This document shows positions 21,001 to 62,755 of a stretch of 64,000 bases of DNA, one piece after another. Position numbers and translations under genes: made by a program. Position 1 is the stretch's first letter; each line of letters begins with the position of its first letter. The DNA comes from a virus (taxonomy: Duplodnaviria > Caudoviricetes). The stretch lies in the IMG/VR virus record IMGVR_UViG_3300023184_000109, positions 1,826 to 65,825 of that record. One strand, 5' to 3'. The notes beneath the pieces are model-generated. The model made no database searches. It saw nothing but the letters and a program-made list of their open reading frames with translations, and was not told the DNA's origin.

Positions 21001-21051
21001 GGTTGACCAATAATTCCCAAACTGCTATAATATGGACTTAACAACAAAGGA
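21001..21051 (+). promoter_or_regulatory. Early sigma70 promoter repeat, copy 1, with RBS
   Basis: TTGACC (21003)-17 nt-TATAAT (21026) with extended -10 TG; 35 nt identical to 21352-21386. Confidence 0.85.
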
Positions 21052-21058
21052 GCCAGCA

Positions 21059-21328
21059 ATGAGTGATTTAGTTACCGATTTGCACAGTGAGATGATCAAC
21101 AGCGTAGCGCCAAACTATAGTATCGACTATGAAGCAGAGGCTCTTGCCAGTTTTGAAGCCGATGGAGATGACTTGATGGAAGCACTTGAGACCCGTGCCA
21201 CAGACTTCATTGCAGAGACAACTGGGGCAGATGTGCGTGAGGACTTGGGTGGCATCACTGTGTTTTTCCGTGGTAGTACTTTGGTTGCATTTTACGATTA
21301 TGAGCAATTTAAAGGGCATGTGTTTTAA
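21059..21328 (+). CDS. Small acidic early protein, unknown function
   Basis: RBS AAGGAGCCAGCA then ATG 21059. Confidence 0.7.
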   Translation: MSDLVTDLHSEMINSVAPNYSIDYEAEALASFEADGDDLMEALETRATDFIAETTGADVREDLGGITVFFRGSTLVAFYDYEQFKGHVF

Positions 21329-21751: not shown

Positions 21752-22888
21752 ATGAACGCAACACGCACTGTATTAAAATCACTCAATCCCAAAAGTGCCG
21801 ACACCAAGTACGTTGGACTTGAACCTGACTGGCGTACTCAACCCACTGATAATCGCATCAGTGCAATGAGCTATGCGTTTGGTTGGTACAATTATTTTTA
21901 TGGCAAGAAAGAAGCCAAGGACATGATTGTGGCATATTTGGACGCACACAAACGGATCAAAGATGCAAAACAAATTCGAACCTTGCCAGACTCACAAATA
22001 CGACTTACCACAGGCTGGCTGTGCCGTATGCAAATGATGGGGTTGGATCTGACCGAGCAAGAAGAGATCAAATTACAAACACTGATAACAGAACTACTTG
22101 AACTCAAACAACAAGCCGCAGTGGTTGCTGTGGCAGCAGATGAGCCTGCCCGGCCCAACATTCAAGACCGGTTGCGTGAAAAAGTTTCAGAGTGTGCTGG
22201 TGAACTAGATGGCATGTTTGATGAGTTTGTTGTTAACGGTGCCAAGATGAGTGCCGACTACAAGCCTATCATGGTGATCCGTGGCTTAAATGTAGCACCA
22301 CAAATGATCTCTAACATTGCTGATATCTGGAAACGCAAACTGGCGGAGTTTGAAACTGTGATTGAAGGCCGGGATGCACAGTTGGTTGAGGGCTACAGTC
22401 ATCTCAGCAAAATTCAAATGCGTAACCTTGTGAAGTTCTGCGAAGCAGTTATCAATGACTGCGGAGCATACGTACAAATCAAAAAAGTAGAACGCAAACC
22501 ACGCAAAGTCAAGTCCGTGAGTCCGGAAAAACGTGCCGCAAAATTCAAAGTGTTAATGGAATTTGTTGAACTCAAGCTCAAGGGCTTGCCAGCCGCAAGT
22601 CTTGTGGACAAAGCTGAAGCCTGGTTGTATGACACCAAAAAGCGCAAGTTGATTCACCTGGTGGCTGACAGCCACACGCAAGCATTCACTGTCAAAAGCA
22701 ACAGCATCATTGGTTTCAGCACCATTGAGACCTTGCAGAAGACTGTGCGCAAGCCAGCAGATGTTGTGAAAGCAGTGCAAGCGGCAGGCAAGCCAGCGGC
22801 ACGTAAGATCTACAAGGATCTTACCACAACAGAAACAGCGTTCAACGGACGCGGAACTGAGAACTTGCTCATACTCAAAGCCTGGTAA
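21752..22888 (+). CDS. Hypothetical phage protein (378 aa, Lys-rich C-terminus)
   Basis: Long clean ORF with SD GGAGCC; no recognisable catalytic motif. Confidence 0.7.
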   Translation: MNATRTVLKSLNPKSADTKYVGLEPDWRTQPTDNRISAMSYAFGWYNYFYGKKEAKDMIVAYLDAHKRIKDAKQIRTLPDSQIRLTTGWLCRMQMMGLDLTEQEEIKLQTLITELLELKQQAAVVAVAADEPARPNIQDRLREKVSECAGELDGMFDEFVVNGAKMSADYKPIMVIRGLNVAPQMISNIADIWKRKLAEFETVIEGRDAQLVEGYSHLSKIQMRNLVKFCEAVINDCGAYVQIKKVERKPRKVKSVSPEKRAAKFKVLMEFVELKLKGLPAASLVDKAEAWLYDTKKRKLIHLVADSHTQAFTVKSNSIIGFSTIETLQKTVRKPADVVKAVQAAGKPAARKIYKDLTTTETAFNGRGTENLLILKAW

Positions 22889-59056: not shown

Positions 59057-59763
59057 CTGACTGCGCCTGTGTGATCCATGGCACTGGATACGACTGGGTG
59101 TATGTGGACAAACTGTACAACATGTTATCACGTAACCTGCAACATGGCATACGTTTCCATGTGTACACCGAAGCCTCAAGAGCAGTACCACCACACATGA
59201 TCAAACATACGTTGACAGAATGGCCAGGTATCTCAGGTCCCAAACGATCATGGTGGTACAAGATGCAGTTGTTCAATACAGAACATCATGCGGGTAATTT
59301 GTTGTACTTTGATCTTGACTGTGTGATTGTCAATGACCTGCAATGGCTTGTGGATTTGTCCACGCAACACTTTTGGACCATACGTGACTTTAGATATCTG
59401 CAACGCCAAGGGCATTCAGGAATGAATTCAAGTGTGATGTGGTGGAACACCGAACATCAAGCACATGTCTGGCGAGACTTTGCCCGCCTGGACATTGATC
59501 AAACTGTGCGCCGCTATCCCGGAGACCAAGACTACCTGGGTGCAGTGATTGATCCCATGCAACGCAGATACTTTGACCAACAGCAGTTGCAAAGTTGGCG
59601 CTGGCAAGTGAGTGAAGGCGGATATGATTTTACTTCACGCAAACCTCGACAGCCAGGTGCAGTAGCACATCTTGATCCTGCTGCCAGTATACTGGTATTC
59701 CACGGCCGACCCAAGCCACATGAATGCACTGCTGATCCTGTGATAGACAGATTTTGGCGGTAA
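59020..59763 (+). CDS. Glycosyltransferase (GT-A)
   Basis: YVDKLYNM, WWYKMQLF, YFDLDCVI, NSSVMWW, GDQDYL and FHGRPKP motifs. Confidence 0.8.
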   Translation: MAKKNRARTDTVTDCACVIHGTGYDWVYVDKLYNMLSRNLQHGIRFHVYTEASRAVPPHMIKHTLTEWPGISGPKRSWWYKMQLFNTEHHAGNLLYFDLDCVIVNDLQWLVDLSTQHFWTIRDFRYLQRQGHSGMNSSVMWWNTEHQAHVWRDFARLDIDQTVRRYPGDQDYLGAVIDPMQRRYFDQQQLQSWRWQVSEGGYDFTSRKPRQPGAVAHLDPAASILVFHGRPKPHECTADPVIDRFWR

Positions 59764-59836
59764 TACTCTAGTAGTACTTGACCAGAAATTCCCATTCTGC
59801 TATACTAGTGGCTTACAAAGCAAACAGGAGCCAGCA

Positions 59837-60046
59837 ATGGGATATCGTGTAGTTGACACCATAGACATCATGCGCAACAAATACAGTGCTCGTGCAGGAC
59901 TGGAAGGCCCGTTCAACTTTAGTGGCCGTGTGTTGTATTATGACAACAAAGAGGGCCAGTACTACGATCCTACTACTGACTTCTATGTGGAGCAAGCGGA
60001 AATGGACGAAATAAATACTCGTTTCTTTGAAGCTTTTAAAAAGTAA
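59837..60046 (+). CDS. Small early protein
   Basis: Own promoter and RBS AGGAGCCAGCAATG; LEGPF...VLYYD.KEGQYYDP.TDFY. Confidence 0.75.
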   Translation: MGYRVVDTIDIMRNKYSARAGLEGPFNFSGRVLYYDNKEGQYYDPTTDFYVEQAEMDEINTRFFEAFKK

Positions 60047-60119
60047 CACTTTGGTAGTACTTGACCAATAATTCCCAAAATGCTATAATACGGACATACA
60101 ACGCAAAAGAGGGCAGATT

Positions 60120-60380
60120 ATGAAGGTAAAACTTTTTGTTACAGGTAGTCAAAATTACATGTATTTCAAAAATAAACTGCCCACCAGACGCTGGGATTAC
60201 TGTGAGACGCCCCGTACAGTGACCATTATTCCTGATCCGGTCAATGTGTATCAAGACGGTGAGTATGGTTTTGTGACGGTTTTTGGTCGTAAGATTTTTG
60301 TCAAGTGTGACGGAAGTCATTGGGAAATTGTTGGCGCTGAGAAAACAAAAAGTAACACTTTTGTAGCACTTGACCAATAA
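60120..60380 (+). CDS. Small early protein
   Basis: Own promoter; its stop codon lies inside the next promoter repeat. Confidence 0.65.
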   Translation: MKVKLFVTGSQNYMYFKNKLPTRRWDYCETPRTVTIIPDPVNVYQDGEYGFVTVFGRKIFVKCDGSHWEIVGAEKTKSNTFVALDQ

Positions 60381-60428
60381 TTGCCAAAATGCTATAATAA
60401 CCACATACAAAGCAAAAAGGAGCCAGCA

Positions 60429-60611
60429 ATGCAGATCGCAACAGCAGTCAAACAAATACAAAAAGAAGCAGACTTTCAGGGCATGGGCCTGTTGGAAGTT
60501 TTACAAGACATCAAACAACATGGTCGCATGATCTACAGTGAACGCACAATGGAAGCGTTTGTTGTTTTTGTGCAACAAGGGCAAGAACTGTTTGCCCCGG
60601 TTGACCATTAA
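60429..60611 (+). CDS. Small early protein (60 aa)
   Basis: RBS AAGGAGCCAGCAATG. Confidence 0.7.
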   Translation: MQIATAVKQIQKEADFQGMGLLEVLQDIKQHGRMIYSERTMEAFVVFVQQGQELFAPVDH

Positions 60612-60674
60612 TTCAACTTTTGCTATAATAGAGACATAAACAGTAAACAACAACGCATTTCAAAGGAGCCAACA

Positions 60675-61703
60675 ATGAGTGCAATTCGAGTGATTAGTGG
60701 TGAGTATCGTAACAACCCAGTTAAGAATGCAACATTCAATCTTGTAAAAGGATTTCAAACTGGTGCCAAGGGTGGGTTTGTGACTGTAAAAAGTGCAGGC
60801 TATTTTGGTCCCGAGTTTGATGTAGTACGTATCAAAGTCAACAACATTAGCGACATCGAGTATGTCAATGGAGAAGCTGTGAGCAATGACAACACTGTGG
60901 CCTTTGTTGCCGCGCAGACTGAAACTGAAACTGAAGAACAAATTATGACTCGTATTCGCGAGCGTTTTGACATCTTGAATGAGATGACAAAGGCTTGTGT
61001 GAACGGTGACATCCGTGCTATGATTGTGTCGGGTCCTCCAGGGGTGGGCAAGAGCTTTGGCGTCGAGCGTGAGATTGAAAAAGCCACCTTGTTTGACAAA
61101 CTGGCAGGCAAGCGTCTCCGTGCCGAAGTTGTCAAAGGTTCAGCAACGCCAATTGGCTTGTATCAAACACTGTACAAGTATTCAGATGACAACTGTGTAC
61201 TGGTGTTTGATGACTGTGACAGCATTTTGCTTGACGACGTGGCCCTGAACTTGTTGAAGGGTGCCTTGGACTCAGGCAAGAAGCGCACCATTTCATGGTT
61301 GAGTGAGTCTAGTGCTCTGCGCCGTGAAGGCATCCCGGATCGTTTCGAGTTCAAAGGTTCGGTAATTTTTATTACCAACTTGAAGTTTGACACAATGAAG
61401 AGCCAAAAGTTGCGTGATCACTTGGATGCATTGCAATCACGCTGTCACTATCTTGACTTGACACTTGACACCATGCGTGACAAGGTGTTGCGTATCCGTC
61501 AGATTGCCAAAGACGGTGTGTTGTTTGCAGACTATGATTTTGAAGAGTGTGTGCAGGACGAGATTGTGGAGTTCATGGAAGCAAATCAGAATCGCTTGCG
61601 TGAGATGAGCCTGCGTATGGCGCTGAAGATTGCAGACTTGCGCAAGAGTTTTGCAGGCAACTGGAAGCGCATGGCTGAGACAACATGTATGAAGAGTGCC
61701 TGA
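60675..61703 (+). CDS. AAA+ ATPase
   Basis: Walker A GPPGVGKS, Walker B LVFDDCD, FITN and ALQSR motifs. Confidence 0.85.
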   Translation: MSAIRVISGEYRNNPVKNATFNLVKGFQTGAKGGFVTVKSAGYFGPEFDVVRIKVNNISDIEYVNGEAVSNDNTVAFVAAQTETETEEQIMTRIRERFDILNEMTKACVNGDIRAMIVSGPPGVGKSFGVEREIEKATLFDKLAGKRLRAEVVKGSATPIGLYQTLYKYSDDNCVLVFDDCDSILLDDVALNLLKGALDSGKKRTISWLSESSALRREGIPDRFEFKGSVIFITNLKFDTMKSQKLRDHLDALQSRCHYLDLTLDTMRDKVLRIRQIAKDGVLFADYDFEECVQDEIVEFMEANQNRLREMSLRMALKIADLRKSFAGNWKRMAETTCMKSA

Positions 61704-61704
61704 T

Positions 61705-61794
61705 ATGGCTTGGCTGGCTGTGCTACTGTTAGTGTTTGTAGGTGAGCCCTTGATGGCATTGCTTTTGGCATTTTTTATTTTGATACTTGATTGA
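61705..61794 (+). CDS. Putative 29-aa hydrophobic peptide (not in the ORF track)
   Basis: MAWLAVLLLVFVGEPLMALLLAFFILILD starts 1 nt after the ATPase stop. Confidence 0.4.
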   Translation: MAWLAVLLLVFVGEPLMALLLAFFILILD

Positions 61795-61801
61795 GTTTTA
61801 C

Positions 61802-61829
61802 CCCGGGGATTGGTTGGCTCCGCCCCGGG
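61802..61829 (+). ncRNA. GC hairpin with a loop antisense to the early-gene RBS (candidate regulatory RNA)
   Basis: Stem CCCGGGG/CCCCGGG; loop ATTGGTTGGCTCCG. Confidence 0.45.
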
Positions 61830-61836
61830 TTTTTAC

Positions 61837-61862
61837 ACAGGCTCTTCGGAGCCTGTTTTTTT
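61837..61862 (+). terminator. Intrinsic terminator with cUUCGg tetraloop
   Basis: ACAGGCTC-TTCG-GAGCCTGT followed by a T run. Confidence 0.9.
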
Positions 61863-61889
61863 GACTTTGTGTTGCAATAAGTATATACT
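61861..61889 (+). promoter_or_regulatory. sigma70 promoter giving a probably leaderless mRNA
   Basis: TTGACT-17 nt-TATACT, 5 nt before ATG 61895, no SD. Confidence 0.7.
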
Positions 61890-61894
61890 GTGTT

Positions 61895-62755
61895 ATGTCT
61901 CAGTATCTTGTAATCAAATTAGGTGATGACAATTTTGAACTACGTTTTCAAATAAGATCAACGCCGTTAGCTCAGCTATGGCTAGAACGCATGAGCCAAC
62001 GACACACATGGCCCATGGATAACCCGGATAGATTTTACGGTTTTGGCACTCCAGCACAAGAGCAACAACGTGCAACAACCATGATTCAACAATGCATTGC
62101 CACAATCAACGCACATGAGCCGATCATCACTCGTGAGTTTGAGTACACACAGGATGGTCTCAATTACTTGCACAACATATTTGAACAGTATCACGGATTG
62201 TTGGATCAACAAACATCAGAATATTGGCGTCAAGCACCTGACCCAGTACGACAAGCCTTGGCCAATCTCAACTTGGCAGTGCATAGATGTGAAACGGCCA
62301 TGGCTGCACCTTGTCCAAGATTTGTTTGCACCTGGTTTGGCATGCCCAAGACTGAATGTTTAGATTCAGTCATGATGACGGATCATGGTGAGCTTGAAAT
62401 CAAGTTTGGCACGGTGTATCTCAACTACTGTGAAATAGGAAAAACAGTTGAAGATCTTGCACACGACAATGATGTATACATAGGCGATGATGCATTTAGA
62501 CCATTTGGGTACTACAGCGCTGATTTTAATGTTGCTTTGTATGGTCAAGATTTGAAATCAAAATTGCCCAGCATGCAACAATACATTGACCAACATGCAA
62601 AATTTTTTGTTGCTCGTGGCATTGAAAACGTGTATAATACACAAGCATTGCCCTTGCGATTTCCTGTGGCAGATTTAGAGTATACCGGCACACAGGACCA
62701 ATTAATATCTCAAATAAGGTCACGACAACTTGTGCGTGAAGTAAACATATTGTGA
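61895..62755 (+). CDS. Hypothetical protein (286 aa)
   Basis: Clean ORF with LNYLH..FE.YHG, LNLAVHRCE and YLNYCEIGK; no function recognised. Confidence 0.7.
   Translation: MSQYLVIKLGDDNFELRFQIRSTPLAQLWLERMSQRHTWPMDNPDRFYGFGTPAQEQQRATTMIQQCIATINAHEPIITREFEYTQDGLNYLHNIFEQYHGLLDQQTSEYWRQAPDPVRQALANLNLAVHRCETAMAAPCPRFVCTWFGMPKTECLDSVMMTDHGELEIKFGTVYLNYCEIGKTVEDLAHDNDVYIGDDAFRPFGYYSADFNVALYGQDLKSKLPSMQQYIDQHAKFFVARGIENVYNTQALPLRFPVADLEYTGTQDQLISQIRSRQLVREVNIL

Follow-up and report, generated by a model that had tools for sequence, protein, structure and literature searches.

How a jumbo phage could limit an early protein through the untranslated end of that protein's own message is the question raised by a hairpin near the end of the DNA analyzed here, a stretch of 64,000 nucleotides (nt), called the window below, that comprises bases 1826-65825 of one 65,825-base viral contig (IMG/VR record IMGVR_UViG_3300023184_000109). 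The hairpin (61802-61829) stands directly upstream of the intrinsic terminator of an early operon encoding an AAA+ ATPase, and its loop is complementary to the ribosome-binding site (RBS) of the ATPase gene. An earlier note on this DNA, made from the window by itself, had read the loop as the antisense partner of that RBS and of several other early genes. We propose, at a probability of about 0.72, that the hairpin is a conserved anti-RBS element in the 3' untranslated region (UTR) of the ATPase operon, pairing with the stretch from the Shine-Dalgarno (SD) sequence to the AUG of the ATPase message. The whole case rests on sequence comparison.

Within the window, the arrangement described in the earlier note was borne out. 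A GC stem of 7 bp, formed by 61802-61808 (CCCGGGG) with 61823-61829 (CCCCGGG), presents the loop (61809-61822) and is followed by U5 and by a terminator with a UUCG loop, and RNAfold predicts both hairpins (-32.8 kcal/mol, z = -3.4). The loop core GTTGGCTCC (61813-61821) and GGAGCCAAC at 60665-60673 are exact reverse complements of each other, and one bulged C lets the pairing continue through AAU to the 12 pairs that had been claimed. Three copies of GGAGCCAGC, in the RBSs before the genes at 21059, 59837 and 60429, pair with the loop through one G-U, and the gene at 21752 does carry GGAGCC. The motif GGAGCCARCAATG, for which a count had been proposed, occurs four times in the window (21049, 59827, 60419, 60665) compared to 0 expected from 100 shuffles, and the predicted loop/RBS duplexes reach -18.4 kcal/mol at all four sites, the best value among 245 open reading frame (ORF) starts in the genome (median -6.9). 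Since repeated ~90-nt promoter-leader cassettes account in part for the four RBSs being identical, this identity is not independent evidence, and the evidence beyond chance comes from relatives rather than from the window.

Relatives were drawn from IMG/VR because a megablast search of the cultured-phage collection returned no close DNA relatives of the window. Hundreds of ATPase homologues (more than 600) are present in IMG/VR, and protein-guided scans gave 226 related loci (L numbers below) with ~75-97% amino-acid identity, to which the window was added; 218 loci were usable and a terminator was detected downstream of the ATPase in 213. The contigs are partly redundant and contain 146 distinct 3' contexts and 76 distinct hairpins. 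Terminators were called by a simple rule of our own and trees were built with FastTree. Several of the related contigs measure 340-350 kb, including one of 346,856 bp (G007) that has terminal repeats and is rated 100% complete. Based on these sizes and on the 1108-amino-acid (aa) tail sheath, the large terminase subunit and the virion proteins of 1200-1600 aa encoded in the window, the contig represents roughly a fifth of a ~345-kb freshwater jumbo myophage genome.

Compensatory changes between loop and RBS, which the earlier note had suggested looking for, were found in these relatives, with coordinated switches of RBS and 3' element in at least nine families. The common family A pairs GGAGCCAAC in the RBS with GTTGGCTCC in the element (~150 loci, 10-11 nt in most). 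The others pair GGAGTTAAA with TTTAACTCC (8 loci), GGAGTTGGC with GCCAACTCC (family C, 1 locus), GGGCTAGTAA with TTACTAGCCC (family D, 4 loci), GGGCTAGAAA with TTTCTAGCCC (family E, 3 loci), GGAGCTAA(C) with (G)TTAGCTCC (7-9 loci), GGAGCTAGA with TCTAGCTCC (about 9 loci), TGGAGCAACA with TGTTGCTCCA (1 locus) and AAACAGGAGC with GCTCCTGTTT (5 loci). The RBS words of families D and E are one base apart, and this base is compensated in the element. For 23 distinct 9-nt RBS cores, the mean match to the locus's own element was 7.04 nt compared to 5.10 (standard deviation 0.25) after permutation, and the duplex energy was -16.0 kcal/mol compared to -12.9; neither own value was reached by any of 100,000 permutations (0/100,000 in each case), in tests that treat the distinct cores as independent. 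In a tree of 157 ATPases, RBS family and element family agreed in 147 of 151 loci and the variant families were nested at separate places among phages of the common type, though recombination may blur the number of independent switches. Finally, the variant words are confined to the two expected places: in the variant loci (5-9 kb) the 7-8-nt family word occurs once in sense, at the ATPase RBS, and once in antisense, in the element, and for families D and E the 10-nt word occurs once per sense in records of 30 and 74 kb. The reading of the loop as antisense partner of the RBS is thereby upheld, selection having kept both sides complementary, and we consider it very likely that the loop-RBS pairing itself is what is under selection.

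The position of the complement is also conserved. With the RBS taken as -18 to +3 and the 3' search limited to the 45 nt before a terminator, the longest perfect complement reached 9 nt or more in 185 of the 213 loci; another 12 loci had 8 nt, and the remaining 16 had no more than 7 nt. The SD fell within the complementary segment in 206/213. When the search was opened to as much as 3.5 kb downstream in the first 160 loci, 97 of 117 best RBS complements had their end no more than 45 nt from a terminator hairpin, compared to ~2% by chance. Because other small genes have been inserted in between, the element lies anywhere from 6 to 2090 nt past the ATPase stop (median 355). For most of the 146 distinct 3' contexts, the last ORF stops 0-32 nt 5' of the anti-RBS, a gap of 0-8 nt in the families with a linear element. 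A terminator-like match falls between ATPase and element in 18 of the 202 loci with a located element, and a promoter-like site in 2; we judged most of the 18 to be weak matches inside small ORFs. Only family D has a convincing intervening terminator-like hairpin plus promoter (L045), with a promoter also in L081. From this layout we infer that the ATPase RBS and the hairpin belong to one transcription unit and are co-transcribed.

Against this background, accidental complementarity of a terminator-proximal hairpin, kept by common descent, is scarcely credible. The ~150 loci of family A share one ancestral pair, which alone proves nothing, and our controls show that perfect 8-nt and occasional 9-nt complements do arise in kilobases of sequence; yet chance would also have to produce the nine matching families, the permutation results, the compensated base between D and E and the position near the terminator. 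The design appears to be specific to this operon. In the 65.8 kb of the window's contig, both strands, no other terminator-like site was preceded by an SD-overlapping complement, and of the 28 terminators surveyed in G007, the complete relative, no more than 2 reached 9 nt, one of them the ATPase element, while the control distribution reached 9 once. These surveys reject an anti-RBS before the terminator as a general rule for all operons.

The hairpin that presents the loop is maintained as a structure. Among the 76 distinct hairpins, 7/7 stem pairs have changed on both sides and 92.3% of cells remain paired, a covariation score reached by 0 of 500 shuffles. Loop length varies from 11 to 20 nt, with the anti-RBS invariably on the 3' side of the loop, and a strong terminator whose stem sequence differs among relatives follows the element. 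The A-type hairpin was found in at least 119 viral contigs, with a single match in each of the 80 contigs listed. In families B, F and those resembling L022, the anti-RBS is instead single-stranded, just 5' of a small hairpin and a few bases past the stop codon. Inverted repeats and palindromes are indistinguishable on DNA, so the 9-11-bp words could in principle be inverted sites for a DNA-binding protein or recombinase flanking the ATPase module, with the stem arms as a palindromic operator, and a change in the specificity of such a protein could make two sites covary. We find this highly improbable, given that one copy is always at the SD-AUG and the other always unpaired, in or just 5' of a stem-loop before a terminator and on the transcribed strand, that the spacing spans 6-2090 nt, and that the arms vary freely yet stay complementary around loops of 11-20 nt. 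Several variants are compatible with wobble pairing, namely L043 (U.G), L112 and L022 (G.U) and the three GGAGCCAGC sites of the window, though one lineage has C.A; with G.U in 3-4 lineages and C.A in 1-2, these are too few to separate an RNA from a DNA reading.

How would such an element act? In the mechanism we propose, the anti-RBS would be displayed single-stranded in the loop, directly upstream of the operon's intrinsic terminator, and would pair with the SD-to-AUG stretch of the ATPase mRNA 1.1 kb upstream on the same transcript. The target would lie in a short, unstructured leader made from the ATPase's own promoter. This RBS is predicted to be open because the leader and start region fold unusually poorly (-6.2 kcal/mol, with folding at least as good in 199 of 200 shuffles), and the loop is the only conserved sequence able to close it. 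In the window, the loop also matches the two small upstream genes that share the terminator. Pairing would hide the RBS from the 30S subunit, leading to less ATPase translation once the 3' end of the message exists, and the contact could form within one molecule, like the 5'-3' UTR pairing of icaR discussed below, or between molecules, including a stable 3' fragment. That the pairing represses ATPase translation is, in our view, probable. The same pairing could have the opposite effect, with closed ends shielding the message from 5'-end-dependent RNases, antisense or host factors, or with the message held inactive until a helicase, a terminating ribosome or processing frees it. Such a protective or activating role would draw on the same well-supported pairing and has a precedent in the fold-back inhibition of hok, and the closeness of stop codon and anti-RBS (0-32 nt in most contexts) would allow terminating ribosomes to mask the element. 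It is nevertheless very unlikely, as the helix covers the SD (206/213) and often the AUG, for which blocked initiation is the simplest consequence, and as the downstream terminator hairpin would block the 3' trimming that activates hok.

The earlier note had gone further, proposing that the hairpin and terminator form a stable RNA of ~60-65 nt, derived from the 3' UTR, that shuts off several early mRNAs in trans (those of the ATPase, of two small operon genes and of the gene at 21059) as a protein-free analogue of T4 RegA. This regulon was not supported as stated: across relatives the only constant partner is the ATPase RBS, and a regulon is possible in this lineage without being the conserved feature. 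The build is that of a 3'-derived small RNA (sRNA), in which a conserved, single-stranded seed is combined with a hairpin and with a terminator ending in U7. Upstream, four near-consensus promoters of the sigma-70 type (59778, 60061, 60370, 60601) follow one another with no terminator between them, so that transcripts of the three small genes, the ATPase and a 29-aa ORF should co-terminate at hairpin 2, and such nested transcripts would give 3' ends in excess over ATPase RBSs. Other observations that favor trans action are the -18.4 kcal/mol duplexes at four window RBSs, of which one belongs to a different transcription unit; a distant early gene of G007 (at 123,109) with exactly the RBS of the ATPase, GGAGCCAACTATG; GGAGCCA-type RBSs at one or two additional early genes upstream in L046, L051, L052, L055, L065, L073 and L094; and family D, in which the element may also lie on a separate transcript (terminator-like hairpin and promoter in L045, promoter in L081).

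On the other side, the additional targets are lineage-specific, A-family phages having 0-3 extra matching RBSs, and they sit in duplicated promoter-leader cassettes whose identity is explained without selection. Variant families have no second target with the new code in the 5-9-kb loci or in the 30- and 74-kb records (9-22% complete), and among 60 promoter-like sites scanned in G007 only the ATPase and one other carry the motif at the RBS. The 89-aa gene at 21059 is not mirrored by an element of its own, the next strong + strand terminator downstream (26076) being preceded by no anti-RBS. By our reading, the hairpin is not preceded by a conserved promoter from which a separate small RNA could start, and a trans-acting RNA would therefore need processing. 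In the available text on icaR, an ectopic icaR 3' UTR is described as without trans action (PMC3868564). Taken together, trans shut-off of several mRNAs is possible but doubtful. Sequence does not separate cis from trans action of the anti-RBS element on the ATPase message itself: the one-to-one match of RBS and element, the shared transcript, the icaR precedent and the action of anti-SD-like words over hundreds of nt suggest cis, while the sRNA-like build, the surplus of co-terminal 3' ends, the layout of family D and the extra RBSs (21059; G007 123,109) suggest trans.

A bolder extension is that the hairpin is freed as a stable 3' fragment acting in trans and that loop and RBS form an address code under diversifying selection. 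Among phages whose ATPases share 75-97% identity, at least nine codes exist that exclude one another and that changed by several bases at once, as would be expected if co-infecting relatives silence each other's ATPase and new codes insulate against this. We regard the idea as unlikely. If true, the system would be a phage counterpart of plasmid antisense incompatibility groups, and the element both a protein-free early shut-off switch and a determinant of interference between phages.

Several points weigh against a conserved, repressive anti-RBS element. First, the statistics have limits. Besides the treatment of the RBS cores as independent in the permutation tests, a tree-aware binary sign test gave 4 changes the same way, 0 opposite and 1 unchanged (p = 0.125), with too few pairs; this binary test ignores that each switch produced the one matching word. 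Second, some lineages deviate. Only 6 nt pair in L076, no convincing pairing exists in L034, a C.A mismatch lies inside the helix in the L201/L212 group, and L204 has 7 nt with a helix mismatch. The loop of L040/41 finds its match, 13 nt long, not at the ATPase RBS but in the leader of the small gene that immediately precedes the ATPase. In L115 the element is gone, the terminator lies 25 nt past the stop and the RBS is unrelated, so that there is no pairing; possibly this is co-loss of element and RBS code, in which case it would count in favor. Milder cases are L051, L094 and L096, with 7-8 nt. These lineages indicate that the contact can be weakened, lost or retargeted and is dispensable or tunable. 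Third, fitting a helix of 9-12 bp into a 14-nt loop with a closing GC stem imposes steric strain, and pairing in cis would be a pseudoknot, which lies beyond the scoring of the folding programs used. Fourth, the direction of the effect, repression or stabilization, is read solely from the position over the SD-AUG. Lastly, transcript data bring little: 24 sequencing runs had matches, each a small share (0.06-0.12), and in four lake or freshwater metatranscriptome runs contigs cover relatives of the ATPase gene, uninformative on transcript ends, strand and level. A single 193-nt metatranscriptome contig spans 61813-61891 and proves nothing.

The features of the operon and the matching RBSs are collected in Table 1. 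In relatives of every family displayed, a TATAAT-type box lies ~35-45 nt 5' of the ATPase RBS, and the promoter in the window yields a short, A-rich 5' leader. The ATPase belongs to a family, phrog_1250, whose function is unassigned in PHROGs and which has a weak likeness to DnaC-like proteins and clamp loaders; a sequence search of the PDB found no relative of it and NCBIfam gave nothing useful. The 29-aa ORF starts one base past the ATPase stop (TGA-T-ATG), similar ORFs beginning ATGGCTTGG follow the ATPase in many relatives, and its product is likely a small membrane protein. Hairpin 2 has the GC-rich stem-loop and U-tract of an intrinsic (Rho-independent) terminator. The ATG at 61895 (286 aa, no family match) sits only 5 nt past the TATACT -10 box, so the gene is probably leaderless, and this arrangement of terminator and next promoter recurs in relatives, with the -10 box, 5-6 nt and ATG in, for example, L023, L043 and L049. 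Eight early-type promoters (TTGACC/T-17-TGnTATAAT) occur in the window, in the regions 21003-21061, 21354, 21699 and 59778-60677, several of them in cassettes, and 4 of the 8 have loop-matching RBSs. The cassettes at 21003 and 21354 are identical through the -10 box and have different RBSs.

Table 1. Positions, in window coordinates, of the ATPase operon, its 3' element and the RBSs that match the loop.
Feature	Position	Strand	Remarks
RBS GGAGCCAGCAATG, 89-aa gene	21049..21061	+	Other transcription unit; possible trans target only
RBS GGAGCCAGCAATG, 69-aa early gene	59827..59839	+	Co-terminal operon; one G-U with loop
RBS GGAGCCAGCAATG, 60-aa early gene	60419..60431	+	Same co-terminal operon; one G-U with loop
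Sigma-70-type promoter of ATPase gene	60601..60629	+	TTGACC-17-TGcTATAAT; promoter scan, 11/12 matches
ATPase RBS through start codon, GGAGCCAACAATG	60665..60677	+	Predicted target of loop; conserved, covaries with 3' element
AAA+ ATPase gene, 342 aa	60675..61703	+	Pfam AAA match; phrog_1250, E 5e-84
Small hydrophobic ORF, 29 aa, MAWLAVLLLVFVGEPLMALLLAFFILILD	61705..61794	+	Stop 7 nt 5' of hairpin 1
Hairpin 1	61802..61829	+	7-bp GC stem, 14-nt loop ATTGGTTGGCTCCG
Anti-RBS core GTTGGCTCC	61813..61821	+	3' side of loop; exact complement of 60665-60673
Intrinsic terminator (hairpin 2)	61837..61862	+	8-bp stem, UUCG loop (61837-61856), then U7; scan and fold
Next promoter	61861..61897	+	TTGACT-17-TATACT (61861-61889); -35 box overlaps terminator U-tract

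Other identities considered for hairpin 1 were set aside. It is not a tandem terminator, as the U-run is not conserved (CTTTA, ATTTC, TTTTA and others in relatives). Its loop could pair with the 3' arm of terminator 2 in the window (GGCTCC/GGAGCC), an option rejected because the terminator stems of relatives vary (GGGAC, GGTACC, GTCGCC and others) while the loop is constant. An sRNA with its own promoter was rejected as well: a weak TTGATG-17-TTTTAT, seen by eye with no match in the promoter scan, lies inside the variable small ORF and is not conserved. A search of Rfam 15 over 59500-62500 gave best scores of 14.8-24.3 bits, compared to gathering scores of 45-95, with no family near threshold. 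Two further complementary words were observed near the element. Immediately 5' of the hairpin (~20 nt), L058, L063, L064, L068, L071, L129, L136 and L138 carry a further anti-SD word, CTCCTTTTT. Its complement, AAAAAGGAG, lies in the RBS that the loop also matches, and the word is an alternative partner, mutually exclusive with the loop. Just past the ATPase stop in L213, L214, L215 and L218, the hairpin after TTAGCTCC also holds TAGACATAC, complementary to GTATGTCTA at the ATPase start and first codons; the order of these segments is not colinear with the RBS.

A few sites elsewhere were examined alongside. In G007 (C1, ~344,560-344,840, within L298) a small gene with the RBS GGAGTCTATTAAATG lies 255 nt 5' of a terminator that is preceded (45 nt) by TAATAGACTC. 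This complement is 10 nt long and may be fortuitous, given that the control reaches 9. In Pseudomonas phage PA5oct (L299, MK797984.1 ~249,890-249,930), an ATPase homologue annotated as 'thioredoxin' has a hairpin 20 nt past its stop whose 3' arm, ATGCTACT, complements AGTAGCAT between its own SD and AUG. This 8-nt complement is within chance expectation, and no IMG/VR relatives of the PA5oct homologue were found. The homologue in the T4-like Vibrio phage D506 (L300, OZ195882.1 17,242-23,252) had no RBS/3' complementarity; this phage keeps the synteny of the ATPase homologue with a downstream DNA helicase and encodes a RegA-like 'translation repressor' nearby. In a 349-kb relative (G006; L262-L274, L278, L280), GGAGCCAAC occurs 13 times forward and 6 times reverse, compared to 0 for the reversed control. 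Most of these copies are not RBSs and lie in repetitive coding sequence, by our reading Gly-Ala-Asn of fiber-like proteins, so that raw genome-wide motif counts mislead.

Pairing between the 3' and 5' untranslated ends of one message has been shown for very few bacterial genes, and the same logic would here operate in freshwater jumbo phages of ~345 kb that are uncultivated. The support from comparison is unusually clean, with many natural 'compensatory mutants' and nine matching RBS/anti-RBS codes. It provides a directly testable case of post-transcriptional control in these phages, and a ready set of short orthogonal RBS/anti-RBS pairs for tests of cis versus trans action and for synthetic biology. 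Were it to act in trans, the element would be a 3'-derived sRNA of a phage, one whose target is defined and whose specificity code evolves. There is also a hint that the dose of the phrog_1250 ATPase, whose gene adjoins that of a UvsW-like helicase, must be tightly limited. In the full-text literature searched, supplements not covered, neither such an element nor any 3'-UTR anti-RBS of a DNA phage was found described; a T7 gene 1.2/RNase III precedent did not turn up there either and carries no weight in the argument.

Several known systems share parts of this design. In the hok mRNA of plasmid R1, the 3' end pairs with the 5' translational region, the full-length mRNA is silent and 3' trimming activates it; the icaR paper alludes to this fold-back as well (PMC3868564). 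The phage element resembles hok in that the 3' end of a message would pair with its 5' translational region, and differs in that hok is a toxin-antitoxin system with an antisense RNA, whereas here the 3' end is guarded by a terminator hairpin and nothing points to a toxin. RegA and RegB of T4 are proteins that act post-transcriptionally on many early mRNAs; the analogy is functional only, since the contact proposed here is between RNAs, would require no such protein and has essentially one conserved target. In plasmid copy control by CopA/CopT and RNAI/RNAII, a hairpin loop carries the recognition sequence, and families of mutually exclusive loop/target specificities are common to both. Those RNAs are cis-encoded and fully complementary, unlike the phage partners, which are separate short words on one strand.

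Base-pairing sRNAs derived from 3' UTRs share the terminator of the parent mRNA. The phage element is similar to them in having a seed upstream of the mRNA's intrinsic terminator, a U-rich tail and pairing at an RBS, a likeness visible in its sequence; it is unlike them in that its conserved target is on the same transcript and that in most families the seed is in a loop and not at a free 5' end. A recent case is CisR, from the prtV 3' UTR, as the accessible part of its report describes (PMC13250501). The portions available of transcriptome papers on jumbo phages list sRNAs with unknown targets (PMC11512511). In the available text of Gill et al. (bioRxiv 2025), words that are rich in pyrimidines and resemble an anti-SD are described as pairing with the RBS from hundreds of nt downstream, inhibiting initiation and promoting decay; such words repress in vivo and are generally depleted from genes as harmful (PMC12697547). 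The phage element differs from them in being conserved, extending into gene-specific bases, being structurally presented and co-evolving with its target.

The closest parallel is icaR of Staphylococcus aureus, in which, as far as the accessible text goes, the 3' UTR contains an anti-SD motif that blocks initiation by pairing to the SD region of its own mRNA, and which its authors termed a singular example (PMC3868564). The duplex there is described as a ~40-nt RNase III substrate in a long 3' UTR, compared to 8-13 nt for the phage element, and the question of cis or trans action is shared by both (PMC3868564, same portion). The phage element, known from covariation, further differs in its placement in a hairpin loop or just 5' of a hairpin, beside the terminator. 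A helix of 8-13 nt is too short for a classical RNase III site. As in icaR, a 3'-UTR anti-SD motif is complementary to the SD region of what would be, by the predicted co-transcription, the same mRNA.

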